Part shown: piece after piece, positions 3,634 through 44,700 of the stretch
Numbering within the stretch: the stretch's first letter is position 1
Layout: the number at the start of each line of letters is the position of its first letter
Assembly: GCA_027078545.1 (NCBI GenBank)
Contig: JALWXN010000004.1
Location: 864,001-928,000, forward strand
Origin: Nitrososphaeria archaeon
GTDB lineage: Archaea; Thermoproteota; Nitrososphaeria; Geothermarchaeales; JDFR-13
Length of the DNA stretch: 64,000 nt
Reading direction: 5' to 3'
The notes under the pieces: model-generated
Told to the model about the DNA's origin: nothing
The model's input: only the letters and a program-made list of their open reading frames with translations
The model's database searches: none
Translations under genes and position numbers: made by a program

Positions 3634-3742
3634 AACCACCACTCATGAGCCATATCCCTATACTTAAATCCCGTCTCGATATAAAGTGGATGTTTCCAAC
3701 AGGTAGCGATTAAAATTATCGTTAAGCATATCATCTAATACT

Positions 3743-4186: not shown

Positions 4187-4207
4187 GGTAGGAGGGGTGT
4201 TAGAGGC

Positions 4208-28703: not shown

Positions 28704-31442
28704 CTAGTCCCTAGGGTTGAGTATGTTTGCCTGTGCAGCCGCCAGCCTGGCGGGTATTATCCTATAGGGACTCGCACTTACATAGTCTAGCCCCGCCATA
28801 TGGAGGAGGTGTATCGAGTCTGGGTCTCCACCATGCTCCCCACAGATACCTATCTCAATATTCCTCTTTACACTCCTCGCCTTCTCCACACAGATCCTTA
28901 TCAGCTGGCCCACACCCTCCCTGTCAAGTGTCTGGAATGGGTTTGTCTTTAGTATGCCTAGCTCGAGATACTTAGCCATAAACTTGTTCTCCACATCGTC
29001 CCTGCTGAAGCTGAAGACGGCCTGTGTAAGGTCGTTTGTGCCGAAGCTGAAGAAGTCGAGCCTCTTGGCCAGCTCATCTCCGAGTAGGGCGGCTCTCACA
29101 GTCTCTATCATCGTCCCTATCTTCACGTCCAGCTCGACGCCATACTCCTCCTCAACCTCCCTGATCATTGGTCTGAGGATGTTGTCCACCACGTAGTCGA
29201 CCTCCTCGGGTATCGCCACCTGTGGGATCATTATCTCCGTCCTAGGCCTATAGCCCTCCTTGATAAGCTCGGCAGTCGCCTCGAGTATCGCCTTGGCCAG
29301 CCCCCTATAGATCTCTGGGTGGGTTATGCCCACCCTCACACCCCTATGCCCCATCATCGGGTTTGCCTCCTCAAGGGCTGTGACACGTCTATACAGCTCC
29401 TCCAGCTCAGCGGTATCCTCACCCCTCTCCCTAGCCTCGTAGATCCTTTTGAGGAGCTCCCTAGAGTCGGGTAGGAACTCGTGGAGAGGAGGGTCTATAA
29501 GCCTGATAACCACTGGGAGGCCATCCATCACCTTGAGAACCTCCTTGAAGTCTGGCTTTATCATCTCGGCCAGCCTCTCCATGTTATGCATCCTCTCCTC
29601 CGGTGACTGGCTCAGGATTACGCTCCTAAGCACCTCTAGCCGCTCAGGCTTCCTGAACATCCTCTCAATCCTCAGCAGGCCTATGCCCTCCGCCCCGAAC
29701 CTCCTAGCCGTCTCTGCGTCCTCGGGGAGGTCTGCATTGGCCCATACACCCAGCCTCCTGAAGCTGTCAGCCCACTCGAGGAGCGTCTCCATCTCATCAG
29801 GCCATTTAGGGGTCTCCGTCGGGACCTTGCCTAGATATATGTTCCCCGTCGAGCCGTCTATGGTTATCCATTCACCCTCCCTCACAACTACCCCGTTGAC
29901 CGTGAAGAGTTTCTCCTCATAGTTGATCTTGATGGCCTCGGCACCGACTACCGCCGACTTACCCATAGCCCTAGCCACTACAGCCGCGTGGCTCGTGTTC
30001 CCACCCTTGGACGTCAGGATACCCTTGGCCGCATAGAAGCCGTGTACATCGTCTGGGGTCGTCTCGACCCTCACAAGGATTACGTCAAGCCCCTCCCTAG
30101 CCTTCTCAATAGCAGCGTCGGGGGTGAAGACCACCACGCCTGACACCGCTCCTGGAGATGCGGGTATCCCCCTGGCTATCGGTTTTCCATTATAGTCCTC
30201 ACTTATCGATGGGTATAGGAGCTTCTCTACGTCTCTAGGGCTGACCTTCAGGACTGCCTCCTCCCTAGTTATTATCCCCTCCCTAGCCATGTCCACAGCC
30301 GTCTTGACCCTGGCCTTGGGGGTCATCTTCGCATTCCTAGCCTGGAGGAAGTATAGCCTCCCCCTCTCCACGGTGAACTCTATGTCCTGGACATCCTTGT
30401 TGATCCGCTCAAGCCTCTTAGCCTTCGTCACGAGCTCCTCATACAGCTGGTCACTTATACTCCTGAGGTACTCGATCGGCTTCGGGGTCCTGATACCTGC
30501 CACCACGTCTTCCCCCTGCGCGTTGGGGAGGAACTCGCCGTAGATCCTATCCTCACCCGTGGCTACGTCCCTTGTGAATACGACTCCTGTACCACTGTCC
30601 TCTCCCATATTGCCGAAGACCATGGCCTGTATATTTACAGCTGTGCCGTGGGCCATCTCCTCCGTGATCCTGTTTATATGCCTGTAGAAGATCGCCCTGG
30701 TGTTCATCCAGCTTCGGAAGACTGCCTTCACAGCCTCCTCAAGCTCCCTCCAGGGGTCGAGGATATCCTCTCCAAACCTCTCAACGATTATTGACCTATA
30801 CCTCTCGACGAGCTCCTCCAAGCCCTCTACACCGAGTCCACTGGGCTCCTCCGCACCATACCTACTGAGGACCTCCTCCTCAGCCTTGTTGAAGAGCTCC
30901 TTCCCTATGCCGAGGGCTATCTCGCCATACATCTGTAGGAAGCGTCGATAGGCGTCCAGTGCGAATCGCTCGTCACCAGTCTGCCTCTTAAGACCTTCCA
31001 GCGTCTCGTCGTTGAGGCCTAGGTTGAGGATGGTGTCCATCATACCTGGCATTGAGACTGGTGCCCCACTCCTCACTGATACGAGTAGTGGGTTCTCGGG
31101 GTCGCCGAATCTACGCCCCATCCTCTCCCCGAGCAACTCCATATACTTCTTAACCTCATCCATGAGGCCCCTTGGGAGCTCGAGGCTCCTCACAAGCCTG
31201 TTGATCTCCTCCTCTATACGGCTCCTCTCCTCGGCCGTGGATGCATTCACCAACTGGTTAGCAAGTCTATCCAGCTCCTTTTTAACAGGCCTGTAGAACT
31301 CGACACAGGCCTCCGTGGTTATGGTGAAGCCTGGGGGGACGGGGAAGCCGAGCTGGGTCATCTGTGCCAGGCTACTCCCCTTACCCCCTAGGAGTTTCTT
31401 ATTCTTCCAGTCCGCCTCCTCAAAGGTGTATATGTACTTCAT
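28704..31442 (-). CDS. ppdK: Pyruvate, phosphate dikinase
   Basis: Start MKYIYTFEE; LLGGKG, LLVSVRSGAPVSMPGMMDTILNLG, NAQGEDVVAGIRTP, phospho-His motif GGNTSHAAVVAR, FSFGTNDLTQ, GICGEHGGDP. Confidence 0.96.
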   Translation of the reverse strand: MKYIYTFEEADWKNKKLLGGKGSSLAQMTQLGFPVPPGFTITTEACVEFYRPVKKELDRLANQLVNASTAEERSRIEEEINRLVRSLELPRGLMDEVKKYMELLGERMGRRFGDPENPLLVSVRSGAPVSMPGMMDTILNLGLNDETLEGLKRQTGDERFALDAYRRFLQMYGEIALGIGKELFNKAEEEVLSRYGAEEPSGLGVEGLEELVERYRSIIVERFGEDILDPWRELEEAVKAVFRSWMNTRAIFYRHINRITEEMAHGTAVNIQAMVFGNMGEDSGTGVVFTRDVATGEDRIYGEFLPNAQGEDVVAGIRTPKPIEYLRSISDQLYEELVTKAKRLERINKDVQDIEFTVERGRLYFLQARNAKMTPKARVKTAVDMAREGIITREEAVLKVSPRDVEKLLYPSISEDYNGKPIARGIPASPGAVSGVVVFTPDAAIEKAREGLDVILVRVETTPDDVHGFYAAKGILTSKGGNTSHAAVVARAMGKSAVVGAEAIKINYEEKLFTVNGVVVREGEWITIDGSTGNIYLGKVPTETPKWPDEMETLLEWADSFRRLGVWANADLPEDAETARRFGAEGIGLLRIERMFRKPERLEVLRSVILSQSPEERMHNMERLAEMIKPDFKEVLKVMDGLPVVIRLIDPPLHEFLPDSRELLKRIYEARERGEDTAELEELYRRVTALEEANPMMGHRGVRVGITHPEIYRGLAKAILEATAELIKEGYRPRTEIMIPQVAIPEEVDYVVDNILRPMIREVEEEYGVELDVKIGTMIETVRAALLGDELAKRLDFFSFGTNDLTQAVFSFSRDDVENKFMAKYLELGILKTNPFQTLDREGVGQLIRICVEKARSVKRNIEIGICGEHGGDPDSIHLLHMAGLDYVSASPYRIIPARLAAAQANILNPRD

Positions 31443-31525
31443 ATATCCACACCATTTAAACGGAGAAGGCAAAGATAGTATTCCCGAGACCCTGTTATAA
31501 ATCGATTTTGAGGTGTACATGTAAA

Positions 31526-32428
31526 ATGTACCGGATAGTCATCCACGGGGGAGCGGGAGACTGGAGAGAGAGGAATGTGGAGGCCGCTCTGAAGAGTATA
31601 GGTGAGGCCCTGGAGAGGGGGCTGGAGATCCTCAGGAGTGGTGGCACAGCCGGCGAGGCCGTGGTAGAGGCGGTAGCGTCGATGGAGGACAGTGGATATT
31701 TCAATGCAGGTATAGGCAGCAGCCTCAACATAGAAGGGGTGAGGGAGATGGATGCTGGCTACGCAGACTCAGATGGCAATATAGGGGCGGTCTCAGGGGT
31801 CAGGAGGCCTAGGAACCCGGTCAGGCTGGCCTACTGGGTAGCCATGGAGACTGACCACGTCCTACTGACGGGTGAAGGAGCCGACAGGATCTCCGCCTGG
31901 ATCGGGCTCGAGGAGATAGGTGAGATACCGAGACACGTCCTGAGGAGGTATCAAGACCTCATAACCCAGAGGAGGATCAGGGGTGAACGTAACAAGAGGG
32001 TGGTGGAGACCTACTATGGAGACACGGTCGGAGCGGTTGCGCTCGACGAGTATGGTAACCTGGCCACAGCCGTCAGCACCGGTGGGCTATGGCTGAAGCT
32101 CCCCGGGAGGGTTGGGGATACACCTATATATGGGGCGGGCTTCATAGCCAACAGGTACTACGCGGCAAACGCCACTGGAATAGGTGAGTATATCGTCGAG
32201 AGCCTCCTATGCAGGAGGGCCCTAGAGGAATACATGGAGATGGGCGACATATACAGGAGCATCCAGGTCCCACTAAAGGAGCTGGGGCTTAGGAGGCCAT
32301 CCTCCGCCGGCCTCATAGCAGTAGACAGGTTTGGGAACATAGCCTATGGACACAACACCCCTAGCATGGTGGTCGCCTACTACAACGGTAGAAGGGCGAA
32401 AACACTGCTTTCACGAAACAGCATTTAG
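31526..32428 (+). CDS. Isoaspartyl peptidase/L-asparaginase (Ntn hydrolase)
   Basis: IHGGAG, FNAGIGS, EMDA, autocleavage site GD|TVGAVA, STGG, GRVGDTP, ATGIGE. Confidence 0.92.
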   Translation: MYRIVIHGGAGDWRERNVEAALKSIGEALERGLEILRSGGTAGEAVVEAVASMEDSGYFNAGIGSSLNIEGVREMDAGYADSDGNIGAVSGVRRPRNPVRLAYWVAMETDHVLLTGEGADRISAWIGLEEIGEIPRHVLRRYQDLITQRRIRGERNKRVVETYYGDTVGAVALDEYGNLATAVSTGGLWLKLPGRVGDTPIYGAGFIANRYYAANATGIGEYIVESLLCRRALEEYMEMGDIYRSIQVPLKELGLRRPSSAGLIAVDRFGNIAYGHNTPSMVVAYYNGRRAKTLLSRNSI

Positions 32429-32538
32429 GGAGAATCCGAATCAGATCATCAACTCATTTTCAATACAAACGTTTAACAGTTCTTTAAAATATATATTCAA
32501 GAGTAAATTGGAGTTTCGCCCCTAAAAGCCAAGTTGTA

Positions 32539-33846
32539 GTGGTCAGGAGGTCGATAAAATTGTCCATAGTGGAGAATAGAGAGGAGATACTTAAGAAGTT
32601 CTTCGAGAAGGTGGACCCCGCCAAGCTGATAGAGGAGAATGTGAGTAGGAAGGGGGACGTCCTAAACATCGCGGGGGAGAAGCTAGACCTAAGGAAGTAT
32701 AGGAAGGTCTATCTACTGGCCTACGGCAAGTCGGCATACAGGATGGCTGTGGGGCTCTACCCATACATCTCGGACAAGCTGGTAGACTCATTCGTCATCG
32801 TCGACAGGAGGAGCGGGGCGAAGGACAGTAGGTTCAGGATCTTCTGGGGTAACCACCCAATACCTGACGAGGAGGTCTATACAGCCACTAGGGAGATCAT
32901 CAAGAAGGTTAGGTACTCGAGGAAGAGCTTCCTCATGTTCAACCTCATATCGGGTGGAGGCTCCGCACTACTCGAGTATCCATTCGCAAACCTTAAGCCG
33001 ATAGACCTCGAGCGTATGTGGAGGATCCTCCTAGACCTAGGGCTCAACATACACGAGATGAACACTGTGAGGAGGCACCTCTCCGCGGTTAAGGGTGGAA
33101 GGCTGGCCAAGCTCCTATACCCCAGCAGGGTATTCAGCCTAGTCATAAGCGACGTGGTGGGAGACCCGATACACGACATAGCCTCCGGCCCAACCGCACC
33201 AGACCCGACGACATACAAGGATGCATGGAACATCCTCCTTAAATACGATGTGAATAGGAAGTGGAAGGCCTCCAGACTCATCAAGAGAGGTATGCAGGGG
33301 GCCCTGGAGGATACCCCCAAGCCTGGAGACCCCGTCTTCCAGAGGGTTACGAACAAGATCATAGCCAACATACCCCTAGCAGCGAGGATGTTCGCCGAGA
33401 CACTGGAGGAGTTCGGGATGAAGACTGAGCTGGTCGATACACAGGTCGAGGCCAGGCCTGAGGAGGCGGCTGACAGGATATTCAGGGAGCTAATGGATAG
33501 GCTCGAGCCTGGCAAGGCCTATATCTATGCCGGGGAGCTCTACGGCCCAGCCGGCAAGACGGGTATCGGCGGCACAGCCCACGAACTGGCTCTACAGCTA
33601 TACCTACGCTTCAGGGATGCGGATGTAGAGATAATAGCCTTCGACACCGACGGCCTAGACGGGAACTCACCCGCAGCTGGCGGGATACTCAGGACTAATG
33701 AGGTCGGCGTAGGTGTAAGGGATATACTAGCCGCTATAGAGTCTAAGGACACCTATACATTGATGCAGCAGGCAGGGCTCAGCCTCCACACAGGCTATAC
33801 AGGGGTGAAGATGGGGCAGATATGGGCCCTATACAAGCCTGGATAG
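32539..33846 (+). CDS. Glycerate 2-kinase (MOFRL/DUF4147) family protein with divergent C-terminal motifs
   Basis: GKSA, GNHPIPD, LISGGGSAL, NTVRRHLSAVKGGRLA, ISDVVGD..IASGPT, TDGLDGNS. Confidence 0.85.
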   Translation: MVRRSIKLSIVENREEILKKFFEKVDPAKLIEENVSRKGDVLNIAGEKLDLRKYRKVYLLAYGKSAYRMAVGLYPYISDKLVDSFVIVDRRSGAKDSRFRIFWGNHPIPDEEVYTATREIIKKVRYSRKSFLMFNLISGGGSALLEYPFANLKPIDLERMWRILLDLGLNIHEMNTVRRHLSAVKGGRLAKLLYPSRVFSLVISDVVGDPIHDIASGPTAPDPTTYKDAWNILLKYDVNRKWKASRLIKRGMQGALEDTPKPGDPVFQRVTNKIIANIPLAARMFAETLEEFGMKTELVDTQVEARPEEAADRIFRELMDRLEPGKAYIYAGELYGPAGKTGIGGTAHELALQLYLRFRDADVEIIAFDTDGLDGNSPAAGGILRTNEVGVGVRDILAAIESKDTYTLMQQAGLSLHTGYTGVKMGQIWALYKPG

Positions 33847-33898
33847 CCACGCCACAACAACCCCGATTTAAAGCCTAGTGGACCCGGAATAGCTAGGT

Positions 33899-34801
33899 AT
33901 GGAGATAAGTATAGTAGACGTATCTCCCAGGCCGGGTATAGAGGGAGATATCTGCCTCTACGCCATAGAGACTGGAGAGGGGCTGATCCTCGTCGAGGCA
34001 GGGCCACCCAACGGGTTCCAACGCCTCGAGAAATGGCTGTTGGAGAGGGGATACAGCTTCAGCGACATCAAGTACGTCCTACTCACCCATATCCACCTAG
34101 ACCATGGTGGTGGAGCTGGATACATTGTACAGAGGGGTGGGAGGCCAGAGATATATGTACATCCACGTGGGGCTCCACATCTTGTAGACCCCTCCAAGCT
34201 ATGGAGGTCGAGCCTAGAGACGATAGGCGACGTAGCCAGGGTATATGGAGAGCCCCTACCAGTGCCGGAGGAGCTAGTGAAGATCCCGAGTGATGGGGAG
34301 ATGGTGGAGCTCCTAGGCCTGGGCTTCGAGTTCATCTATACACCTGGCCATGCCAAGCACCACATGTCTATCTACCTAGAGGATGAGGACATACTCTTCA
34401 CGGGCGACTCGGCAGGCCTATACCACGGAGGCACGGTGATCCCGACCACCCCGCCTCCCCACAACGTTGAGGAGAGTATTGCCAGTATCAGGAGGATGAT
34501 GTCCCTAGCCCCCGGGAGGCTGGGATATACACACTTCGGGATAGTTGACGACGCACTGGACTGGCTCGAGAGGTATGAAATAGTCTATAACAAGTGGGTC
34601 AACCACGTGGAGAGGGGCTATAGGGAGGGACGTGGCATAGACGAGATCTACAGGGAGCTGAGACGTGTAGACCTTGGGATAGAGGTCCAAGAGAGGTTCT
34701 TCAGGTATAGGGGGTATGGGGAGGAGGAGGTCCTACTCAGCCTCTACGGGATCTATAGCTACTACGAGTGGCTCGAGACTCGTTCCAGCTCAGGATCTTG
34801 A
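33899..34801 (+). CDS. Metallo-beta-lactamase fold hydrolase
   Basis: THIHLDHGGG, VHPRGAPHL, TPGHAKHH, FTGD, YTHFG. Confidence 0.9.
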   Translation: MEISIVDVSPRPGIEGDICLYAIETGEGLILVEAGPPNGFQRLEKWLLERGYSFSDIKYVLLTHIHLDHGGGAGYIVQRGGRPEIYVHPRGAPHLVDPSKLWRSSLETIGDVARVYGEPLPVPEELVKIPSDGEMVELLGLGFEFIYTPGHAKHHMSIYLEDEDILFTGDSAGLYHGGTVIPTTPPPHNVEESIASIRRMMSLAPGRLGYTHFGIVDDALDWLERYEIVYNKWVNHVERGYREGRGIDEIYRELRRVDLGIEVQERFFRYRGYGEEEVLLSLYGIYSYYEWLETRSSSGS

Positions 34802-35102
34802 GGTGGTAGATATAGACCTTCGTATCCCTAGGTAGCTCACCATAAATATCCCTAAGAATCCCCTGGAGCTCCTCCAACGACTCGAACCCATCTATAACCG
34901 CGTCCCACTCATTCAGGGTCTCCAGACTCTTCTCAACAATATCCTCAACCACCGCCTTACCATAGATCTTACCATTGGTATCAGCTATGTAGACCGTCTC
35001 CCCCAGCTCATACTTCTTCTCAAGCCTGATAGTCGTCCTCTTCCTCCCACTCCTGAGGAGCTCGAGATACTCCGGCCTAAACTTCATCTTCCTATGCCTC
35101 AT
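34737..35102 (-). CDS. ASCH domain protein (YqfB-like)
   Basis: Start ATG 35102 after GGTGAGGGG; F...Y...L.SGRKRTTIR signature, DAVIDGFESLEEL...L..IY. Confidence 0.88.
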   Translation of the reverse strand: MRHRKMKFRPEYLELLRSGRKRTTIRLEKKYELGETVYIADTNGKIYGKAVVEDIVEKSLETLNEWDAVIDGFESLEELQGILRDIYGELPRDTKVYIYHLKILSWNESRATRSSYRSRRG

Positions 35103-37413
35103 CCCCCTCACCCTTGAGGACGTAGTAAAGCCTAAGCTTAGCCACAAGCTCCCTAGTCTTGTTAACCACCTCCTCCATATCCAGGTCGAAGTACATGGCA
35201 ACCTTCTCCCAAGGCCTAGCCTGTAGAACCCTGTTTATCAATACATACTCCCACAGCCTGGGTATCCGGACCCTCTTATCGGGGCTCCTCATAAAGTGGG
35301 TCTTAACCACCTCCCTTATGGCGTCGTAGGCCCCTCCGAAGGCCATCCCGCCATAGATATACATCTTCAGCCTCTCCCTCTGGGCCCTGCTCAGGCTCGG
35401 CTTATAATCCATCTCGAAGGGGTCCATGGAGAGGAGCTGGTACGCAAGCTTTGGCTCAAGGTTGAAGTGGCACTCGAACAGGGTGGTCATCAAGAGCTTC
35501 TTAAACTCCTTCCTAGCCCTCCTGACAACCTCCTTCGCCCTCCTACTCAGCGGCCTTATAACCACTGTGCTGAACTCCCCTGAGACGGCGTTCCTAACAG
35601 GGCTTAGGTATAGGGGGGCGAAGCCGTTCCTCCACCAGAAGTCTAGGAGCTTATCAGTAGCCCCGAAGCTCGCGCCCACCCAGTCCATACCCATCTCCCT
35701 AGCCTCCTCCACAACCTTCTCCAACGCCTTGCTACCAACACCCTTCCTCATAACGTCTGGATGGGTCGCTATCCTCACTACCCTTATACCTCTCATCTCC
35801 GGTATGCCTTCAAGGTGTGGATAGTAGCGGAGGAGTATCGTGGGTATAACATGTCCACTGGGCGGGTCTCCAGCCAAGGTGCGCATCACGTCCTCCTCGG
35901 TCATCGCCCCCTCATAGGCGAGGTGTAGGCTATTTATGACATGCCCCCTATACATCATCGCCCGCATGAAGTGGTGCGGAGCATCCATCAGGATCATCAG
36001 GTCGTTGGGCCTGTTCCTATAGTGTGCATAGATGTAGATGCCGATATACTCCTTGAGGAGGTCACGCTTCTTGAATAGCCACTCCTCGGGATCCGGCTTG
36101 ACGTATCGGAGTCTAGAGAGGTCTAGGTCGAAGATCTCCGCCTCACTATATGGATATGGGTCAGCGTCTAGGAAGAAGGTCTTGAAGAGCCAGTCCTCCA
36201 CAGGGTCTTCAGGGGCGTATCGGATCGGCTCATCCATATCCACCTCTATAAGCCTACCCCCGAAGACCTTCCTAACCATTGGTAGGAACCTTACCTGGAA
36301 CCCCCTACCAGCACCCTCATAGCCGTGGAGGGTGCTTGAGAAGACCGACTTCTCAAACTTCTCGGCGATATGCTCTAGGATATGGGTGGGTATACCGCTG
36401 GCCTCATCCACAACTATGAGGTCCGCCTTCACCTTGTAGCTGGTGGGCGGGTTGATATAGGCTATCTTACCCAGCGTACTATTGATCTCCACGATCACCC
36501 CGCCCTGCTTCTTAACATTATGCTTCACCCCATGCTCCCTGAAGACCATCCTGATGAAGCTGAATATCTCCTTGGTGTTTACCGGGTCTGGAGCCGTGAC
36601 ATAGATCTTCAGCTTATCCTTCTTCGAGGCCTTCTTCAACATATAACCTGCAACCCCGAGGCCCACGGCGGCAGATTTGCCCCTACCCCTATCAGCCGTC
36701 ACGACCACGCTTCCACGGGGCATTGAGGAGAGCTTATCGATAGCCCTGATCACCCTTACCTGGTCCTCGGTGAGGGCCCTCCTATATATCGACTCGTCGA
36801 AGGATATGTCGCTAGGTATCTCCGGGGGCCTACGTACATAGTCCGGATACCTCACCTCCCTACCCGCCAGGCCACCATCCTCATGGAAGAAGACTCCTGG
36901 ATGCTCCTCCAGGCTCTCGACGAAGTATCGCTGGAAGATCGTCTGTACATCCTCCAGGGTGAAGGGGGAGGTGACCATATCCCTGTGGAAGGGTGTCTTC
37001 ATATTCTTCCACCTCTCCCTCTCAGGGGAGAGGACTATTATGTAGCCCCCGCCCCTCACAACCTCTATTACGCGGCCTACATCGTTCGGCCTCATATCCC
37101 TCCTGAGATCAACTATCAGGGCGTCCCAGGTGGTGCCGAGTATCCTGTTGAGATCCTTGAACTGGACATACTCAGGCCTCGCCCTCGAGTCGATACCCTT
37201 TGATAGTGGCTTCCACATATTGTTCTCAGACTTGGGCTCCTTACCCGCGAATAGTAGGCTGTAGGACTCCCCCCTCACCCCGTCATACCTATTCACGATG
37301 TCTAGGAGGGCCTCGGGGGAGGGCTCCTCGATAACAATCATCCTCCTATGGAACTCCCTAAGCGCGTTCCCAAATATCTCCTCCGGCCTATATATCTCAA
37401 CCTCCCTCTTCAT
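35092..37413 (-). CDS. tmcA: tRNA/RNA cytidine acetyltransferase TmcA/Nat10 (ac4C writer)
   Basis: DUF1726 region (ILGTTWD..D...PNDVGRVIEVVRGGG), Walker A ADRGRGKSA, DEAS, STLHGYEGAGRGF, AHYRNRPNDL, GNAT RVVRIATHP..MRKGVGS. Confidence 0.93.
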   Translation of the reverse strand: MKREVEIYRPEEIFGNALREFHRRMIVIEEPSPEALLDIVNRYDGVRGESYSLLFAGKEPKSENNMWKPLSKGIDSRARPEYVQFKDLNRILGTTWDALIVDLRRDMRPNDVGRVIEVVRGGGYIIVLSPERERWKNMKTPFHRDMVTSPFTLEDVQTIFQRYFVESLEEHPGVFFHEDGGLAGREVRYPDYVRRPPEIPSDISFDESIYRRALTEDQVRVIRAIDKLSSMPRGSVVVTADRGRGKSAAVGLGVAGYMLKKASKKDKLKIYVTAPDPVNTKEIFSFIRMVFREHGVKHNVKKQGGVIVEINSTLGKIAYINPPTSYKVKADLIVVDEASGIPTHILEHIAEKFEKSVFSSTLHGYEGAGRGFQVRFLPMVRKVFGGRLIEVDMDEPIRYAPEDPVEDWLFKTFFLDADPYPYSEAEIFDLDLSRLRYVKPDPEEWLFKKRDLLKEYIGIYIYAHYRNRPNDLMILMDAPHHFMRAMMYRGHVINSLHLAYEGAMTEEDVMRTLAGDPPSGHVIPTILLRYYPHLEGIPEMRGIRVVRIATHPDVMRKGVGSKALEKVVEEAREMGMDWVGASFGATDKLLDFWWRNGFAPLYLSPVRNAVSGEFSTVVIRPLSRRAKEVVRRARKEFKKLLMTTLFECHFNLEPKLAYQLLSMDPFEMDYKPSLSRAQRERLKMYIYGGMAFGGAYDAIREVVKTHFMRSPDKRVRIPRLWEYVLINRVLQARPWEKVAMYFDLDMEEVVNKTRELVAKLRLYYVLKGEGDEA

Positions 37414-37445
37414 CTCCGCCCAATATAGGATAATAGCTATGTGTA

Positions 37446-38588
37446 TTAAGCCTCGGCCACGGCTATCCTGGTTATCAGCTTCCCATGGAGGACCTGTAGA
37501 TTCTCGAGAACCCTATATCCCGACGCCTCCAACGCATCCCTTAGGAGGCGGTACTCACTTGTTATGGCGACTATCCTCCTGATACCGAGGCTCGAGAGCT
37601 CGTCAACCACATCTCTATATAGATCCTCCAGGACCTTGCGCCGAGTCATCCTGATCCCATAGGGAGGGTTGAAGACGGCCACGCCACTCTCGAGGCTGGG
37701 TAGGTGGCTAGTCAGGTCACGGGCATCTACACACATGAACCTTATAGCCCTATCCACACCCGCCGACTCGGCGTTTCTCTCGGCGCCCGACATGTATCTG
37801 CAGGAGATATCGTTGTAGATTATCTCTGGCCCCTCCCCCGGTGGGAGCCTAGCGTTATAAGCCTCCTCACGGGCCTCTAGATATGTCTCCAATGGGTAGT
37901 ATGGGATCTTAGTTATCATGTGGTTAGGCCTATAGAGGCCCGGTGCATACCTATATCTATACAGTGCCGCCTCAATAGGAATGGTACCCCCACCGGCCAT
38001 CGGGTCTATGAAGGGCTCATCCCAGAACCCGCTGAGCAGAACCATAGCAGCTGCCAGACTCGTCTTTATAGCGGCTGGGTGGTTCCACACCCTATACCCC
38101 CTTATGTGGAGGCTCTCACCCACCAGGTTAACCCCAAATGTATACCTGTCATCAACGATCCTGAGGATATACTCCCTATCGGGGCTGGTCAGATCTACAC
38201 TAACCTTATACCCAGCCCTCTCCAACGCCCTATAGACAGCCGCCCCCACAACCCTATTGGCATCCAGGCTTGTGAAGCCGTGGCTCCCATACCTACTACT
38301 CCTGAGGGCGAAGGAGCCATCCCCACCGAAGAGCCTCAGGTCAAGAGACTCGACACGCCTAGCAATATCCTCCAGACTATTGAACACACCCTCGTCGAGT
38401 ACATGTATCACCTTGTAGATAGTCCTACCCCAAAGGATCAGCCTAGGGACGGCCTCCACACCGAGCCTAACCCTAAGCGTATTCTCAGCCTGTATAGGCA
38501 TAACACCAGTGATATCCCTAACCTCCTCAGCAGCCACCCTGGCTATCCCCTTCGTAATAGTGATTAGTATATCGGCATCGCCCGGCAA
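37446..38588 (-). CDS. trm14: THUMP-domain tRNA (guanine-N2)-methyltransferase, Trm14-like
   Basis: THUMP N-terminus, SLHIRGYR..HPAAIK, DPMAGGGTIPIEAA, NPPYG. Confidence 0.85.
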   Translation of the reverse strand: MPGDADILITITKGIARVAAEEVRDITGVMPIQAENTLRVRLGVEAVPRLILWGRTIYKVIHVLDEGVFNSLEDIARRVESLDLRLFGGDGSFALRSSRYGSHGFTSLDANRVVGAAVYRALERAGYKVSVDLTSPDREYILRIVDDRYTFGVNLVGESLHIRGYRVWNHPAAIKTSLAAAMVLLSGFWDEPFIDPMAGGGTIPIEAALYRYRYAPGLYRPNHMITKIPYYPLETYLEAREEAYNARLPPGEGPEIIYNDISCRYMSGAERNAESAGVDRAIRFMCVDARDLTSHLPSLESGVAVFNPPYGIRMTRRKVLEDLYRDVVDELSSLGIRRIVAITSEYRLLRDALEASGYRVLENLQVLHGKLITRIAVAEA

Positions 38589-38623
38589 TTTTATCCACCA
38601 TATCCTCTAGTTAATATTCGGAA

Positions 38624-39460
38624 ATGGAGCTGGATAGGATTTATAGCGAGGCCAATCAAGATCCAGTAGGTAGTCTTGAATGGGTCCTTGAGAAGTGGAT
38701 AGATAATTCTAGGGAGCTCCCAGGTCGTAGGGGTGGGGTGGTCTACCTCGAGGTTGATAGATGTCTAGTCATTGGCGATATACATGGGGACCTAGATACG
38801 CTCCATAGACTCCTCACAAAGACTTGGAGGGGCGAGCCACTACTCTTCCTGGGTGACTATATTGATAGGGGGTTCCAGCAGCTGGAGACCCTGAAGTATA
38901 TAGCCCTCCTAATGGATGATGCAGATGTGATTACCCTTAGGGGTAACCATGAGCCGCCTAGATGGCTACCGGTATATCCCCATGACTTCCCCCATATCCT
39001 CAGGACGCAGGGGGTGCACCACCTATACGATCTTGCCCAGGAGATGTTCGACAGCCTACCTATAGCAGCTGTGCTTAACGGTGAGGCCCTAGCTATACAT
39101 GGTGGGATACCGGTCAGCATATCGAGGGTGGAGGAGCTTGAGAGGCCTAGGAGGGAGGTCTTGGCAGAAGCATTGTGGAACGACCCCTTCGAGGGCGTTG
39201 GTATAAAGCCTAGCCCAAGGGGTGTGGGCCACCTCTATGGGATCGACGTGACGAGGAGGTTCCTAGGTAATAACGGGCTTAGATACCACCTCAGGGGGCA
39301 TGAGGCGGTTGACGGCTATAAGGTCTTCCATGAGGGGATGGGGATAACCCTATTCTCACGGCTAGGCATACCATACGGAAACTCTAGGGCCGCGATATAC
39401 ATCTACGAGCCTGGCGGTAACCATCTCGACCCGGCAAGATTCATATACGTATTTAGATGA
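38624..39460 (+). CDS. PPP-family serine/threonine protein phosphatase (PP1-arch type)
   Basis: GDIHG, GDYIDRG, LRGNHE, IHGG, LWNDP, SPRG, RGHE, TLFS. Confidence 0.92.
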   Translation: MELDRIYSEANQDPVGSLEWVLEKWIDNSRELPGRRGGVVYLEVDRCLVIGDIHGDLDTLHRLLTKTWRGEPLLFLGDYIDRGFQQLETLKYIALLMDDADVITLRGNHEPPRWLPVYPHDFPHILRTQGVHHLYDLAQEMFDSLPIAAVLNGEALAIHGGIPVSISRVEELERPRREVLAEALWNDPFEGVGIKPSPRGVGHLYGIDVTRRFLGNNGLRYHLRGHEAVDGYKVFHEGMGITLFSRLGIPYGNSRAAIYIYEPGGNHLDPARFIYVFR

Positions 39461-40009
39461 TCAGCACCGGGACAACTGTCTAGACGCCTCCTCCAGGAAC
39501 ATCCTATAGATATCATCGGTGTATAGGACGAAGATCACCTTCTTAACACTCCCAGGATCAGTGGAGAAGTCCTTCACAGCCCTTATCATCCCCCTTGCAG
39601 AGACCTCGGGCTCCACCCTATAGACCCCGGTAGATATGGCTGGGAAGGCTATAGACTCTAGTCCCTCAGACTTCGCTAGGAGAAGGCTATTCCTAACTGC
39701 ACGATATATCTTACTCTCCTCGTCACCCTCCCCCTTGATCGGGCCAACCGTATGTATCACCCACTTGGCCTTTAGCCTACCAGCCGTGGTCTTGACCGCG
39801 TCACCCACCTCTAGGGGGCCACGCTCCCTGATAATCCTGTCCGACTCCTCCTGTATAACATATCCACCCCTCCTCACTATGGCTCCAGCCACACCGCCGC
39901 CATGCTGGAGATACTTGTTAGCCGCGTTGACGATAGCATCGGCCTCCACCTCTGTGATGTCCCCCTTGATGAATATGATCTCAAGCCCCCCACACCTGAA
40001 CCTCTCCAT
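39461..40009 (-). CDS. Macrodomain protein (MacroD-type ADP-ribose binding/hydrolase)
   Basis: GDIT, AIVNAAN..L.HGGGVAGAI, VIHTVGP, SIAFPAISTGVY. Confidence 0.93.
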   Translation of the reverse strand: MERFRCGGLEIIFIKGDITEVEADAIVNAANKYLQHGGGVAGAIVRRGGYVIQEESDRIIRERGPLEVGDAVKTTAGRLKAKWVIHTVGPIKGEGDEESKIYRAVRNSLLLAKSEGLESIAFPAISTGVYRVEPEVSARGMIRAVKDFSTDPGSVKKVIFVLYTDDIYRMFLEEASRQLSRC

Positions 40010-40082
40010 AGCCAGCACCCCGCGACAGTAATACCATCCCCTTAAATCCGTTAAAACGGGATTCAATGGTGGTGCCTAGGAG

Positions 40083-41687
40083 ATGAAGGTATACGAGGCC
40101 ATAGCCGATGCATTGGTCAGCCTAGGATATAGGAGGGCCTATACTATACCCGGGACACACATATATCATTTGAACCACGCCCTGGGAGACAGGATTCACC
40201 AGACGGTTTTCAGGCATGAGATGGGCGCCACCTTCGCGGCCGATGCATATGGAAGGGTCACAGGTACTCCAGGCCTAGCCATAGTGACGGCCGGCCCTGG
40301 CATACTAAACGGGTTATCAGGGCTTGGACAGGCATATGCAGAGGCATCACCACTCCTATACATAACCGGCGAGGTCGCCAGGGGCGAGAGGTACGGCTTC
40401 CACGGAGTTGATGACCCCCTAGCCGTCACCTACTCATCCATACCAGTGGCTAAACGCGTATACCTCGTCGAGGATCCAGGCAGCATATGGAGCGTAATGG
40501 GTGAGGCTCACTACACAGCACTCACAGGTAGGAGGGGACCCGTACATGTATCTATCCCCTATGACGTACTGCAGAGCGAGGTTGGTGAGGGGAGGCTGGA
40601 GCAGAGGGAGACGGATGGTATAGCTAGATGTGTAGATGTTATCAATGAAGGACTTAGAGACGGTGTGAGGGGCGTCCTGGTAATCGGTATGGAGCTATAC
40701 CCAGAGCTGGCGGATAGGCTACTAGACCTCTTTGAGACATGGCCCTACATAGCCACGGTAGGCCAGATAGGCATGGCTCGGCTTAGGAGGGATAGATATG
40801 CAGGCCATATAGAGAAGAAGTTCCAGATCCACCCAGTAGCCAAGGAGATCCTTAGGGAAGCTGAATATATACTCGCAGTCGGGATACCGCCAGACTCACC
40901 AGAGGCGGAGCATATCTCAATGCTAAGCAAGGATGCCAGGATAGACTTCCTAAGGCCTAGCGAGGCCGGGTGCAGCGTGGAGAGGATAGGTAAGGGCTAC
41001 CATGTAGAGGCACCCCTCAGCGAGGCGATTGACCTCCTAAGCCCCGGAGAAAGCGGCCTAGACCATGACGTGGAGAAGATGATGAGAGAGCGTCTTGAAT
41101 GGGCTAGAGAGACTGTCTACTCCGAGAAGGGGCCAAGGATACACCAGGGAGTGGCTGCACACATGATATCCCAGCTAGAGATAGATGGCTACACAGTCAC
41201 CTGTGACACTGGCGGGAATGAGCAATGGATAAGGGAGTTCATACCACCCACCCGCGACGTCAGATATCTATACTCAGGGGGCTTCGGATCAATAGGGTAT
41301 AGCCTACCAGCATCCATAGGAGCCTACGACGCTGAGCGGGAGGTACTAGCCGTCACTGGGGACGGGAGCCTGATGATGAGTCTGGGCGAGCTCAAGACTA
41401 TAGTGGAGCATGGATATAGGGTGAAGATAGCGGTATTCAACGACTCTACCTATGGAATACTAGAGATGCTGAGTAGGAGCGATATAGGTGAGGAGATCGA
41501 GGGAGGGATAGGGAGCGTCGACTTTGCAAAGGTTGCGGAGGCACTGGGTATGGAGTCCATGGCTGTAGAGACATATGAAGATCTTGAGGAGGGGCTTGAA
41601 GAGCTCATGGATAGTACCGGGCCATTCCTCCTAGACATCAGGTGTAGCCCGGAGGAGGTCCCTACACTACTGAGGAAGAGTGATTAA
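40083..41687 (+). CDS. Thiamine pyrophosphate-dependent enzyme, acetolactate synthase-like
   Basis: RHEMGATFAADAYGR, TAGPG, GPVHVSIPYD, GSIGYSLPASIG, TPP motif GDGS...FND. Confidence 0.88.
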   Translation: MKVYEAIADALVSLGYRRAYTIPGTHIYHLNHALGDRIHQTVFRHEMGATFAADAYGRVTGTPGLAIVTAGPGILNGLSGLGQAYAEASPLLYITGEVARGERYGFHGVDDPLAVTYSSIPVAKRVYLVEDPGSIWSVMGEAHYTALTGRRGPVHVSIPYDVLQSEVGEGRLEQRETDGIARCVDVINEGLRDGVRGVLVIGMELYPELADRLLDLFETWPYIATVGQIGMARLRRDRYAGHIEKKFQIHPVAKEILREAEYILAVGIPPDSPEAEHISMLSKDARIDFLRPSEAGCSVERIGKGYHVEAPLSEAIDLLSPGESGLDHDVEKMMRERLEWARETVYSEKGPRIHQGVAAHMISQLEIDGYTVTCDTGGNEQWIREFIPPTRDVRYLYSGGFGSIGYSLPASIGAYDAEREVLAVTGDGSLMMSLGELKTIVEHGYRVKIAVFNDSTYGILEMLSRSDIGEEIEGGIGSVDFAKVAEALGMESMAVETYEDLEEGLEELMDSTGPFLLDIRCSPEEVPTLLRKSD

Positions 41688-41706
41688 AAAGGGGGAGGGG
41701 TTTGGA
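41686..41706 (-). terminator. Putative C-rich/oligo-T terminator of the zinc-ribbon operon
   Basis: Minus strand TCCAAACCCCTCCCCCTTTTT after the stop at 41707. Confidence 0.5.
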
Positions 41707-44700
41707 CTAGTCCTCAAGCCTAGTCCCACAGCTCATGCAGAACTTGGCAGTAGGCCTATTCACATGTCCACAGCTGGGGCAGACCTTGCCAGCCCTCTCC
41801 ACCCTTGTAGGCCTCGTGGGCCTCGGGATCTGTGGCTTTGGTAGGCCTCCCATGCCACGTCTATAGAGGAGGAAGCCCGTTATACCGAGCCCTATGATAA
41901 TCACTATGGTGATACCCAGCGAGGCGGGTGTGAACATTACCCCTATCTCTAGGCTGGTGGCTCCCCTCCCGAGTGAGGCTGTACTCGTCGTCACGAAACC
42001 GGTCTCTAGGACTAGATCCCTATCTGGTAGTAGGAGTGTGAACCTCCCTGAGCCGTCGGTCTGAGTGGTGGCCACCACCTCGCCTGTAGACGGGTTCACC
42101 GCCCTTACCTCTGCAGAGCCTAGTGGTAGGCCAAGGAAGTCCCTGACAGTCCCAGTCACCCTCTTCACCTCTGTGGATATAGTGACAGTGGAGTCGGAGG
42201 CTAGGCCGACCTCCTGGGTACCCACGGTGTAGCCTAGGTATCCGATCTCCACCCTATAGCTTCCTGCGGGCAGATTGTTCAGAACCGCCTCTCCACCAGC
42301 CTCTCCAGCTATTACGCTCCCATTGGGGTGGTATACCTTGTAGCTGAAACGCTCGAGAGCCTCCCCATCCATCGTCTCGGGCCTGATGACCAGGTCGTAG
42401 ATAGCCAGCTGGATAGTCTTCTCACCGGGGGACGACTCGGCGGAGTATGTTGTTGGGAGTAGTACTCCCTGGTAGACGATGTTTGTTATCGAGATCGTCC
42501 CCTTGGGCAGGAGGAGCTGTGGATTATCCACTGGGAACTCCCTACCCTGTATCGAGAGGGTGAAGGAGACCTTCCCGAAGGGTATCTCCTCCCCATCTGC
42601 ATCGACGAATCTTAGGCTGACGCTGTATACAGCCGCCTTGATTGAGAAGGACTGGTCCCCACCCGTGAACTGGATCGTCCTCTCACTTGGGAGGACGTCG
42701 AAGCCCCTCCAGCTTAGGCTCTCTATGGTATATGTACCTATGACCGCGTACTCAAGGACGAGGCTACCCGTGACCGTATACCTCTTACCACCCGGACCGA
42801 TCAGAACAGCCTCCACATCGTCCAGGACTATTGATCCTGAGGAGTCGGATACGCTTATGCCAAGCCTACCCACTGGGAGCTCAACCTGTACATCCCTGTT
42901 ACCATCTAGCTGTACATCGATGCCTAGGCCATACTCCACACCATCGATATAGACGGCCTCTACACGCCAGAGCCCCTTCACAGCCTGTTCAACAGTCAGT
43001 CCACCGGTGAAGGTTATGGTGGATCCGTTGGGGTGTCTAAGCACGAGCCTGAAGTCTAGGCCAGAGCTGGATAGATCCCTTCCGAGGGTGTCCCTGGCGT
43101 CTAGCCTAAGCCTATAGACAGCGAGGCCCACCTGCATAGAGACGTCTCCATCGACCTGTATCGAGACGGGGCTGGGCAGTACGTTTACACCCTCCATGTA
43201 GACACCGATAAGTCTATGTGTACCCCTGGGCATCTGGTAGGCGGCTCCCCTAGCCTCGAGGCTTATGATCCTACCAGCCACGTCCAGCTCTATCCGGAGA
43301 GCCCTGTCTATAGCCCCTCCATTGGCGTCTCTAAATGCCAGGCTGAGGTGGTAGACCTCGAGGTTAACAACAACCTCACCAGGACCATCGACGTTGAAGC
43401 TGTTCTCACTGGGCGTCACGTCCACACCTAGGTAGACCACCCTCTCAATGGTTATCGTGCCAGGCACGAGGGCGACTCCGTCAGGCGAGTATACCAGGCT
43501 GCCAAGCCGGTCATGCCTGATACTAACCTCCTCAGGCGGAGTGGTAAGGGGCTCGCCATCCCTATCCCTGAATACGAGGTTTATCCTGAATACACTGGTC
43601 TCAACAGTCCTGACCCCGCTGCTCGTCTCCCTGAAACTGGTGTTCGCCACCTCGACACCCGACCATATAACCCTTATCCTATAGTCCCCCCAGGGCGCAC
43701 GGTCAACCGTTATTCTACCAGCCTCGTCGGTCCTGAAAGTCCTTACCGTGCCGTTTGGATATGTGACCTCCACATCTACATTGGGGAGTGGCTGCCCAGT
43801 CTGATCCACAACGGTGTAGCTGAGGCTTAGGAGGTAGTCCTCCACGTTGAAGGTCACGTTACCCATATTCTTGTATGCGTCGAGGGCGTTGGAGAGGGCG
43901 TTCTCATAGTTGCCAGCCCCGGACTTTATGATGTTTATCGCGGTGGATAGGCTCTGGTTATACTGGCCAACCTGGCTCCATACATCGTCTGGTATAATGG
44001 TGAAGCCGTACCGCTTGAAAGGCTCAAGAGCCGTGTCGAGCTTACCATATGCCTTGTCGATATAGTAGAGTGCATAGAGCATACTCGCCTGCTCGATCTG
44101 GAAGACATCGTTCCTACCCCAGCTATGGAGGTAGGTCATGTATCCCCAGGTCATGCTCCAGAGCCAGAAGACATCAAGAGCCCGGCTAGGGTTACGTGTA
44201 GCCATCAACTCCCTCCAATTAATCCCGTTGTGGGGATGGTTTAGGGAGAAGATATGTCCTGCCTCGTGTACAAGTAGGGTGGTAAGCCCTAGCCATGGCG
44301 GTACCTTACTAAGTATTGTTATGTTAACGTAGGTGTCAAACCACTCGTTGTTCTGGACGAGGACTACATATGTATCCCCGATGCCACGGGGCTGGACACG
44401 GGCGTTTACCACCCCATTAAAGGTCTGCCGATATATGGGTGTGGGGCTACCACCGTCTAGGAACTCCCTATACCCTGCACCATCTAGAACTATTATATCC
44501 ACCTCTCCGAATGTGAAGCCCTGTATAACTATCTCCCCACCAGTGACCTTGGGGAATATTGGCACAGGTTGAGCCGCTATCTGGAAGGCGGGTAGATAGC
44601 CTATCAACGGTTCGGAGGGGATATACCCGCCGATAAGTGCAGGTGTCTGTAGGACGGCTATGATATGGGATGGGATGGTGTTCTCATCGGTAAGGGCGAT

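Follow-up and report, generated by a model that had tools for sequence, protein, structure and literature searches.

A putative YqfB-type N4-acetylcytidine amidohydrolase gene overlapping the end of tmcA in an uncultured hot-vent archaeon, and the recurrence of the pair across archaea

N4-acetylcytidine (ac4C) is the only known acetylation of RNA, and the RNA of hyperthermophiles is rich in this modification. The E. coli protein YqfB (PDB 9KYF/9KYH), a single-domain ASCH β-barrel of about 100 aa, accepts various N4-acyl cytosines, and its alanine mutants at Lys21, Thr24 and Arg26 are inactive (PMC6972931); the yqfB gene sits in E. coli K-12 between trhA and bglA, away from tmcA. Recently, in a preprint of February 2026 (10.64898/2026.02.27.708502), all 19 ASCH proteins tested have been described to remove ac4C from tRNA in vitro, with Afu2ASCH active on tRNA ac4C34, D-stem ac4C12 and free ac4C, and being among the most effective on the two former, and the RNA ac4C of E. 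coli ΔyqfB was reported as unchanged; according to its introduction, the ac4C levels rise with temperature in hyperthermophiles. The same preprint describes the archaeal proteins Afu3ASCH and Pku4ASCH (ASCH + AAAD_HTH), whose ASCH domain is of the GKTR type, as is that of the protein considered here; however, such two-domain forms have about 185-205 aa and a C-terminal tRNA-binding HTH domain, whereas the present protein, like YqfB, is single-domain. In the EOLA1 study (10.64898/2026.08.01.741249), human EOLA1 is presented as a stand-alone ASCH protein that deacetylates free ac4C for nucleotide salvage, and the ASCH genes of the YqfB clade are stated to form a conserved operon with TmcA/Nat10, which is read by the authors as a hydrolase acting on the ac4C from the acetyltransferase. 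The operon takes up one sentence of the main text and a supplementary figure, the main text being without the word 'archaea', and it is the present analysis, not the passages concerned, that gives the numbers, the overlap of start and stop and the spread over lineages presented below.

The window, i.e., the whole stretch of 64,000 nucleotides that was analysed, originates from an uncultured hot-vent archaeon. Three open reading frames follow in a row on its minus strand (37446-38588, 380 aa; 35092-37413, 773 aa; and 34737-35201), the last of them containing an in-frame ATG at 35102 that gives an ASCH protein of 121 aa. The features of the locus are as follows.

37446..38588, minus strand: Trm14-like gene with THUMP and class I methyltransferase domains (380 aa, TTG start; Pfam, NCBIfam)
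37414..37445, minus strand: 32-nt spacer between trm14 and tmcA, AT-rich (TATA-like), with GGCGGAG at its end, just before the tmcA ATG
35092..37413, minus strand: tmcA, RNA cytidine N4-acetyltransferase, 773 aa (Pfam)
35108..35112, minus strand: GGTGA resembling a Shine-Dalgarno element, within tmcA and 5 nt ahead of the ASCH start codon
35092..35102, minus strand: overlap of the ASCH start with the tmcA end, 11 nt (ATG 35102-35100, TAG 35094-35092)
34737..35102, minus strand: ASCH gene, 121 aa, YqfB-type putative ac4C amidohydrolase (PF04266, AlphaFold model, hhalign)
35025..35048, minus strand: octapeptide GRKRTTIR, ASCH residues 19-26, holding K21, T24 and R26 (Lys21, Thr24 and Arg26 of YqfB)
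34842..34892, minus strand: ASCH segment from D71 (YqfB Glu74 position) to Y87 (YqfB Tyr89 position) (alignments, hhalign)
34740..34784, minus strand: Arg/Ser-rich 15-aa C-terminal tail, ASCH residues 107-121 (alignment), overlapping the opposite-strand MBL gene
33899..34801, plus strand: convergent MBL-fold hydrolase gene (Lactamase_B 6.2e-31), a neighbour outside the module

The order trm14-tmcA-ASCH on one strand, as given in the first-pass annotation of this DNA, is borne out by the same-strand reading frames and their Pfam domains, and the DNA contigs from two vent metagenome runs, used as an assembly check, span the junctions without differences. The 773-aa protein unites three Pfam domains of TmcA, all above their cut-offs (TmcA_N, 2.6e-37; the NAT10/TmcA helicase NAT10_TcmA_helicase, 5.7e-51; GNAT_acetyltr_2, 1.6e-37), and is the sole PF05127 match in the genome; with the halobacterial equivalog tmcA_Halo of NCBIfam it scores 464.8 bits, below the cut-off of 700. 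The label trm14 was retained only in part: the 380-aa protein has the UPF0020/RMKL-like methyltransferase (2.3e-40) and THUMP (2.8e-07) domains, but its Trm14_Arch score of 244.7 bits falls below the cut-off of 280, and 'Trm14-like' is therefore the safe name. To judge by the letters of the spacer at 37414..37445, tmcA may have a promoter of its own there. At the other side of the locus, the 3' ends of the MBL-fold gene and of the ASCH gene overlap by 65 nt.

The junction sequence itself agrees with what had been annotated, i.e., an ASCH start at 35102 overlapping the tmcA stop at 35092, with the Shine-Dalgarno-like element within tmcA. This GGTGA (35112-35108) is complementary to the 16S rRNA 3' end of the same genome (...GGAUCACCUCC; the 3' end in this genome, ...GGATCACCTCC). 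A second in-frame ASCH ATG is present at 35087, and 35102 is favoured as the start because in the orthologues the conserved (L/M)xF strand is preceded by 3-8 residues. Such an overlap of the ASCH start with the tmcA end was found in 31 of the 35 adjacent pairs among the loci fetched with the ASCH profile, where the nearest ATG at least two codons before the conserved strand, or else a GTG/TTG, was taken as the start codon; a comparable overlap occurs in 11 of the 12 phylum-sample loci showing the junction, the twelfth (L014) being without a canonical start.

The protein matches PF04266 (ASCH) with an E of 1.8e-14 and 54.7 bits (cut-off, 21.2), over the profile positions 1-100 of 103. The PDB sequence search with this single protein gave weak matches, with PH0355 (2z0t) as the best at E 0.18, and the fold search and profile comparison were therefore needed. 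The AlphaFold model of the 121 aa (pLDDT 86.9) has a PUA-like β-barrel fold, to which the E. coli YqfB crystals 9kyf/9kyh are the closest structures (Foldseek TM 0.86-0.87). The superposition of a model on YqfB, suggested in the first-pass annotation, placed YqfB as the top structural match in VIA (Z 15.7, rmsd 1.7 Å, 99 residues), the next ASCH structure being at Z 12.2 and all the top 17 matches being of ASCH or ASCH-like (DUF984, EOLA1) structures with Z 7.3-15.7. Unlike the YqfB-type window protein, human EOLA1 (5y7d) is a member of the TRIP4-like clade, whose octapeptide contains Glu, and it is a much weaker match (Z 8.1). The full-length profile was aligned with YqfB by hhalign at a probability of 95.7% and E 9.7e-9, and the identity of the two proteins is 27% by MAFFT and 25-26% by structural alignment.

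The YqfB-type motif G-x-K-x-x-T-x-R is kept, with K21, T24 and R26 in register by MAFFT and hhalign, and by the same two methods D71 of DAVIDGF, an acidic residue with a shorter side chain, stands at the position of YqfB Glu74; the alignments are thus in accord with the earlier reading of a kept G-R-K-x-x-T-I-R and of an acidic residue of DAVIDG at the YqfB Glu site. Tyr87, which occupies the position of YqfB Tyr89, is shared by 75 of 76 rows. Overall, K21, T24, R26 and Y87 are conserved in 74-75 of the 76 related archaeal rows, K, T and R being found in every row with a residue at those columns (74/74), and the invariance of DGF in the related rows is partly imposed by the pattern used to search them. 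Mutating the YqfB counterparts of these four residues inactivates or weakens the enzyme (PMC6972931). However, the His70 and Asp27 of YqfB, conserved in the enterobacterial clade, are not matched in the window ASCH, where His70, as well as Glu74, is replaced by Asp (Asp67 in the former case) and the Asp27 segment is deleted, as it is throughout the 13 linked archaeal sequences. With the YqfB equivalog of NCBIfam (NF003443), the protein scores 21.7 bits (E 1.8e-4), below the cut-off of 93, and is not an equivalog by the NCBI rule. The score far below that cut-off and the altered His70, Asp27 and Glu74 count against the main reading of the locus as a YqfB-type hydrolase gene tied to the writer.

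By alignment, the Arg/Ser tail is absent from the orthologues; it is predicted to be disordered (pLDDT about 50) and lifts the pI of the protein from 6.75 (core) to 9.3. The ASCH proteins linked to tmcA in archaea have a median pI of 9.58 (n=37), most of them being basic, against 4.68 for the acidic YqfB, and the substrate handling may therefore differ. A tree of the ASCH domain built on 112 columns left the backbone unresolved and put the window and L017 sequences on long branches; the joining of the window protein with YqfB in this tree was flagged as long-branch attraction.

A counterpart is encoded by Archaeoglobus fulgidus, whose tmcA-linked ASCH is a single-domain protein of 103 aa with the motif GEKITTVR and 35% identity to the window ASCH (E 1e-13), its ATG overlapping the tmcA stop. 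By elimination, this protein is Afu2ASCH. It comes from another phylum than the window and is devoid of the Arg/Ser tail; the macro-domain gene AF1521 is found there directly upstream of tmcA, in the place of the Trm14-like gene of the window.

In the window, the ASCH gene of the threonine (GKTR) type lies directly downstream of the TmcA/Nat10 orthologue on the same strand. According to the first-pass annotation, a linkage unique to this genome would have told against its reading; counted across archaea, the adjacent pair occurs in at least six archaeal lineages. Thus, in a same-phylum sample of 301 genomes, 125 of them tmcA-bearing, the pair was found in at least 12 genomes besides that of the window, these 13 falling into 8 families, which is a lower bound resting on 150 of 184 ASCH matches. 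In the Archaeoglobus class (Archaeoglobi), it is adjacent in 44 of 70 tmcA-bearing genomes, a tmcA on the plus strand close to an unseen contig end being scored as 'not adjacent'. Among the 72 loci fetched with the ASCH profile, 35 have the pair adjacent, covering Bathyarchaeia, Hecatellales, Nezhaarchaeales, Methanomethylicota, Archaeoglobi, DHVE2, and Baldrarchaeota, and 8 of these 35 share contigs with the phylum-sample loci (L019=L003, L023=L013, L027=L004, L030=L010, L032=L011, L040=L005, L048=L008, L050=L012). The TmcA proteins of the linked loci are only 33-40% identical to that of the window.

Each of the genes is also found apart from the other. Whole families have tmcA without ASCH among the matches listed (ASCH in 0/10 vs tmcA in 10/10 for the family f20, and 0/4 vs 4/4 for f16), and the hydrolase is therefore dispensable for writing. 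An ASCH-like match was obtained in at least 42 of 43 class-mates (f2) and a tmcA match in none of them, and the seeded loci of Desulfurococcales, Pyrodictiaceae and Thermococcus contain a related ASCH gene unlinked to tmcA. Among the unlinked relatives, those of Desulfurococcales, Pyrodictiaceae, Thermofilaceae and Thermococcus that come nearest are the two-domain ASCH proteins, which are not adjacent to tmcA, with the exception of the Baldrarchaeota forms.

When the flanking reading frames of 41 linked or near loci and the window were clustered all-against-all, no conserved neighbour was found besides tmcA and ASCH, the clusters being those of the two genes, antisense shadow frames and lineage-restricted genes. 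Nucleoside salvage genes, acetyl-CoA synthetase and others considered as conserved neighbours were absent from these clusters. The inclusion of trm14 in the operon, as annotated earlier, had to be given up: tblastn with the window Trm14-like protein gave 0/13 among the phylum-sample loci, and its sole match in the 72 seeded loci was L036, which is without tmcA, the link thus being confined to the window. An MBL-fold gene beside the pair was likewise not found in the 13 + 72 loci, with distant matches only in L054 and L077. A macro-domain gene lies in the window at 39461-40066, and AF1521 adjoins tmcA in A. fulgidus; as a recurring partner, a macro gene was mostly rejected, tblastn giving none in the other loci, and the macro gene that stands between tmcA and ASCH in L056 is regarded as part of an inserted DarTG-type cassette because a DarT-like gene adjoins it. 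Toxin-antitoxin cassettes are inserted between tmcA and ASCH in two loci, where both genes are kept on one strand.

Taken together, tmcA and ASCH probably constitute a two-gene module, in which the ASCH protein would be a YqfB-type ac4C amidohydrolase translated as a unit with the writer. As judged from the orthologues, hydrolysis of ac4C by the window ASCH is likely. In the proposed mechanism, TmcA would acetylate the N4 of cytidine in RNA, and the ASCH protein would hydrolyse the N4-acetyl group with the formation of cytidine and acetate, with Lys21 as the putative base, Thr24 as the nucleophile, Arg26 as the oxyanion hole, Asp71 acting for YqfB Glu74, and a contribution of Tyr87. Since the ASCH start codon is inside the tmcA end, the ribosomes finishing tmcA would re-initiate on ASCH, and the hydrolase supply would therefore track that of the writer. 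The functional proposal of the first-pass annotation was sustained by sequence, fold, context and orthologue as far as an ac4C hydrolase tied to the writer is concerned, but recycling and erasing, which it had named side by side with reading, fit this evidence alike. Several observations count against the main reading: the co-made writer and eraser look futile if the same RNA sites are targeted, the linked clade is basic vs the acidic YqfB, there are ASCH-free families, and RNA ac4C is reported as unchanged in ΔyqfB (10.64898/2026.02.27.708502). That the A. fulgidus protein was equated with Afu2ASCH by elimination is a further point on this side.

Provided that ac4C is hydrolysed, the chances come close to even that the main job of the protein would be salvage, i.e., clearing free ac4C nucleosides, nucleotides and oligonucleotides, which would come from the turnover of heavily acetylated RNA; under the same proviso, a mainly RNA-acting protein, eraser or proofreader of misplaced acetyl groups, is a tentative possibility. 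Considered as a rival on its own, an RNA eraser or proofreader of ac4C in tRNA, rRNA or mRNA is rather unlikely. It would remove the misplaced acetyls of a promiscuous TmcA or set a reversible, temperature-tuned ac4C level, its co-translation supplying an 'antidote' in constant proportion to the writer. The 19 of 19 tested ASCH proteins that strip tRNA ac4C in vitro, prominently Afu2ASCH, argue for this, but Afu2ASCH is absent from the list of clear tRNA binders by EMSA, and no eraser phenotype is known to have been described in vivo, E. coli ΔyqfB being unchanged (10.64898/2026.02.27.708502). The basic character of the linked archaeal ASCH proteins (median pI 9.58) and the Arg-rich tail of the window protein also point to RNA, but its core is near neutral (pI 6.75). 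Also in favour of this rival, the Baldrarchaeota tmcA-linked ASCH carries an extra C-terminal domain of about 90 aa, which agrees in length with the tRNA-binding HTH domain and may correspond to it, and the organism of the window encodes reverse gyrase, with ac4C reported to rise with temperature in hyperthermophiles (10.64898/2026.02.27.708502). However, a writer and an eraser made constitutively at 1:1 would run a futile cycle if neither was regulated.

In eukaryotes, THUMPD1/Tan1 helps NAT10/Kre33. A non-catalytic PUA-like 'reader' of RNA or ac4C, or a specificity adaptor aiding TmcA in substrate finding or release, would fit the PUA-like fold of the ASCH protein, with its weaker matches to the PUA domains of TruB and Cbf5 (VIA Z 5-6), the tight overlap, which suggests stoichiometric production, and the nucleic acid binding by some ASCH proteins (10.64898/2026.02.27.708502). 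However, the linked proteins retain all the catalytic residues of YqfB (K, T, R, the acidic one and Y), for which a mere binder would have no need; Afu2ASCH, the orthologue, is reported to be an active enzyme (10.64898/2026.02.27.708502), and many tmcA-bearing lineages are without ASCH among the matches listed, so that TmcA does not need it, all of which makes a mere reader very improbable. Equally improbable is a functionless, inherited gene order with an ASCH protein acting on some other N-acylated or modified base, for which the ASCH genes of genomes without tmcA (at least 42 of the 43 f2 class-mates), the unlinked relatives in Desulfurococcales, Pyrodictiaceae and Thermococcus and the various N4-acyl cytosines taken by YqfB (PMC6972931) might speak, but the pair survives where all other neighbours changed, including lineages with TmcA only 33-40% identical to that of the window, keeps the start-stop overlap in 31 of 35 pairs, and has both genes on one strand in the two loci with a toxin-antitoxin cassette between them.

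The expectation, expressed when the locus was first annotated, that a genetically linked archaeal ac4C eraser would be new did not hold, as the February preprint reports archaeal ASCH proteins removing tRNA ac4C (10.64898/2026.02.27.708502). Since the pairing and the idea are already contained in two 2026 preprints (February and August), the locus is a further example and not a new principle; this example, the archaeal counts and the start-stop overlap are what the present work adds. It is improbable that TmcA and ASCH, made in fixed ratio, act as a physical writer-editor pair. If so, the hydrolase would strip the acetyls from wrongly or transiently modified RNA cytidines, ac4C would, in thermophilic archaea, be subject to proofreading, reversible and tunable by temperature, and the Arg-rich tail of the window protein and the extra C-terminal domain of the Baldrarchaeota forms would be the RNA handles. 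With regard to the main reading of a hydrolase translated with its writer, the tight attachment of a hydrolase gene to that of the writer in so many lineages of archaea speaks strongly, on the genomic side, for cells that manage the product of the writer, and such pairs, for example AF1521-tmcA-ASCH of A. fulgidus, would be natural systems in which salvage might be distinguished from erasing.

The ORF reading of the window places three consecutive genes on the minus strand at 34737-38588, with the following features.

37446-38588, minus strand: Trm14-like gene, with THUMP and RMKL-like methyltransferase domains (Pfam); NCBIfam Trm14_Arch 244.7 bits against a cut-off of 280
35092-37413, minus strand: tmcA, 773 aa, with all three TmcA/Nat10 domains (Pfam)
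35094-35092, minus strand: tmcA stop codon TAG (sequence reading)
35102, minus strand: in-frame ATG of the ASCH gene, giving an 11-nt overlap with the tmcA end
34737-35102, minus strand: ASCH gene (PF04266, E 1.8e-14)

This one-strand row, described in the first-pass annotation as trm14-tmcA-ASCH, is borne out by the window sequence, including the overlap and a GGTGA that sits 5 nt 5' of the ASCH ATG and pairs with the 16S 3' end of the same genome; the name trm14 holds for the THUMP and methyltransferase domains, but the Trm14_Arch score lies below its cut-off, and the product is therefore named Trm14-like. The alternative ATG at 35087 gives an ASCH protein beginning within the first conserved β-strand, ahead of which the aligned orthologues carry 3-8 residues, so that 35102 is the better start. 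At its 3' end the ASCH gene overlaps a convergent MBL-fold gene by 65 nt and encodes a 15-aa Arg/Ser-rich tail, absent from the aligned orthologues and disordered in the AlphaFold model. Both junctions are spanned with zero differences by DNA contigs of two vent metagenome runs, and tmcA and the ASCH gene are each the sole match of their kind in the genome (1.24 Mb, 11 contigs searched). The presence of the stretch in hydrothermal-vent metagenome runs and a reverse gyrase in the genome (1189 bits) fit a thermophile. A THUMP-domain enzyme encoded immediately before the Nat10 homologue calls to mind the NAT10-THUMPD1 partnership of eukaryotes; no other examined locus shows this adjacency.

The ASCH protein was compared with E. 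coli YqfB (sequence from NC_000913), with which a 13-sequence profile aligned over the full length in hhalign (95.7% probability, E 9.7e-9). By MAFFT and hhalign, K21, T24, R26 and Y87 align with YqfB Lys21, Thr24, Arg26 and Tyr89, and D71 falls at Glu74, as the YqfB-like motif and acidic residue noted at first reading had suggested. The alanine mutants of YqfB Lys21, Thr24 and Arg26 are reported as inactive, and Glu74Ala as 100-1000-fold slower (PMC6972931). Unlike YqfB, the window protein has Asp in place of His70 and lacks the Asp27 segment. The nearest structures to its AlphaFold model (pLDDT 86.9) are the YqfB crystal structures (Foldseek TM 0.86-0.87), with Z 15.7 and rmsd 1.7 Å over 99 residues by VIA, the next ASCH structure having Z 12.2. 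Given this residue register and fold match, yet an NCBIfam YqfB equivalog score of 21.7 bits against a cut-off of 93, the protein is, as judged from sequence and model, a distant YqfB-type relative predicted to keep the core catalytic set, and by its octapeptide it falls into the threonine ('GKTR') class of the February 2026 preprint (10.64898/2026.02.27.708502).

The tmcA-ASCH pair recurs well beyond this genome. Among 301 genomes of the window's phylum (125 with tmcA, 142 with an ASCH match), at least 12 others from at least 7 further families carry, like the window, a same-strand ASCH match whose distance downstream from the TmcA helicase domain is about 1.04-1.06 kb, and one more case (G230) is interrupted by a contig end. 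The adjacency is present in 44 of the 70 tmcA-bearing genomes of the Archaeoglobus class, absent in 23 and cut at the contig start in 3. A profile-seeded scan with one genome per species gave 72 loci, in 35 of which tmcA ends at the ASCH start (8 of these being contigs already in the other counts); it lies 1.5-1.6 kb upstream in 2, the flank is without tmcA in 33, and 2 do not allow a call. Of the 35 pairs, 31 have the chosen ASCH start within the tmcA end, and the other four have gaps of 1-15 nt. Linked loci cover Bathyarchaeia, Hecatellales, Nezhaarchaeales, Methanomethylicota, Archaeoglobi, DHVE2 and Baldrarchaeota, their TmcA being just 33-40% identical to that of the window, and in the flanking-gene comparison no neighbour apart from tmcA-ASCH was common across lineages. 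The tmcA-linked ASCH frame of locus L014 (4420-4752, genome G069) has no ATG, GTG or TTG from the upstream stop to the conserved LNFSKEY strand; translation may start at an ATT codon or by re-initiation past the tmcA end. At G368:C33:6408-10159 (Archaeoglobus class), tmcA is followed by two same-strand ASCH matches (open frames 138 and 182 aa), which appear to be a single-domain and a longer ASCH in tandem.

The closest relative, L017 (51% ASCH identity), is one of the two near loci and carries VapB and PIN VapC, then a MarC membrane protein gene, between tmcA and ASCH on the same strand (3588-4931); in locus L056 (3360-4795) a DarT-like and a macro (DarG-like) gene occupy this place, also on the same strand. 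These inserts are inserted toxin-antitoxin cassettes. In seven loci, L017 (629-1132) and the Nezhaarchaeales L006, L007, L009, L040, L045 and L048, tmcA is preceded by an ORF of about 167 aa with an ACT domain, which was not detected in window 29001-45000. A macro-domain gene lies at window 39461-40066 (minus strand), 0.9 kb upstream of the Trm14-like gene, and in A. fulgidus (L094, 751-1353) the same-strand gene just before tmcA-ASCH encodes the macro protein AF1521 (full-length match of 422 bits to PDB 1vhu); since tblastn found no macro gene near the pair in the other loci, this proximity may be a coincidence.

Most unlinked relatives have two domains and a length of 185-205 aa (Desulfurococcales, Pyrodictiaceae, Thermofilaceae, Thermococcus). 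In the ASCH domain tree, linked and unlinked forms cluster (7 changes versus about 26 with shuffled labels), the backbone being unresolved and the window protein on a long branch. Archaeoglobus-class genomes without the link have a short GKTR-type ASCH elsewhere; in one of them (L099, 4426-5057, genome G353) a 101-aa rubrerythrin/EncFtn-like gene precedes it with a 4-nt overlap. No tmcA match occurs in the 43 sampled genomes of family f2, the class-mates of the window genome, and 42 of them have a partial ASCH-like match, covering profile positions 1-67 in open frames of about 152-158 aa; these look like a different ASCH subfamily present without the writer.

Three ASCH genes occur in A. fulgidus:

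ASCH gene 1: 103 aa, GEKITTVR; its ATG overlaps the tmcA stop
ASCH gene 2: about 175 aa, GRKRLTIR; C-terminal extension
ASCH gene 3: GEKKWEIR

Three were cloned in the February 2026 preprint, with Afu2 and Afu3 assigned to the GKTR group, Afu1 to the GKER group, and an HTH domain to Afu3 (residues 100-177); thus, by elimination, the tmcA-linked gene is probably Afu2ASCH, and the window protein is 35% identical to its product (E 1e-13). According to the same source, tRNA ac4C in E. coli falls strongly when Afu2ASCH is overexpressed; the protein clears ac4C34 in vitro, readily removes the D-stem ac4C12 of eukaryotic tRNA and has detectable activity on the free nucleoside.

The window protein probably hydrolyses ac4C. 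TmcA would write the mark, and the overlapping ASCH gene would provide an enzyme that hydrolyses this group, in an amount proportional to the writer. Such an enzyme may serve salvage, clearing free ac4C species from RNA turnover: YqfB is highly efficient on the nucleoside (PMC6972931), E. coli ΔyqfB is described as having no RNA phenotype and Afu2ASCH is absent from the list of proteins with clear tRNA binding by EMSA in the available text of 10.64898/2026.02.27.708502, salvage is concluded in the August 2026 EOLA1 preprint (10.64898/2026.08.01.741249), and a co-produced writer and eraser of the same sites would be futile. The hydrolase may instead work on ac4C in RNA, as suggested by the in vitro tRNA data of the February preprint, the basic character of the archaeal ASCH proteins linked to tmcA (median pI 9.58, n=37, versus 4.68 for YqfB), the Arg-rich tail of the window protein and the tmcA-linked two-domain forms of Baldrarchaeota. 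An obligatory subunit or pure reader is unlikely, because the protein retains its catalytic residues and ASCH is missing from entire families that have tmcA (f20: tmcA 10/10, ASCH 0/10; f16: 4/4 and 0/4).

A genetically linked archaeal ac4C eraser, considered new in the first-pass annotation, is preceded by the August preprint, where YqfB-clade ASCH genes form a conserved operon with TmcA/Nat10 (Fig. S1a), and by the February one, where ASCH proteins, archaeal included, are established as ac4C deacetylases and whose available text yielded no mention of an operon with tmcA. The window pair therefore belongs to a known kind, to which are added here the archaeal counts of the tmcA-ASCH pair, the conserved start-stop overlap of the two genes, the split between linked single-domain and unlinked two-domain ASCH, and the probable identity of Afu2ASCH with the tmcA-linked gene near AF1521.
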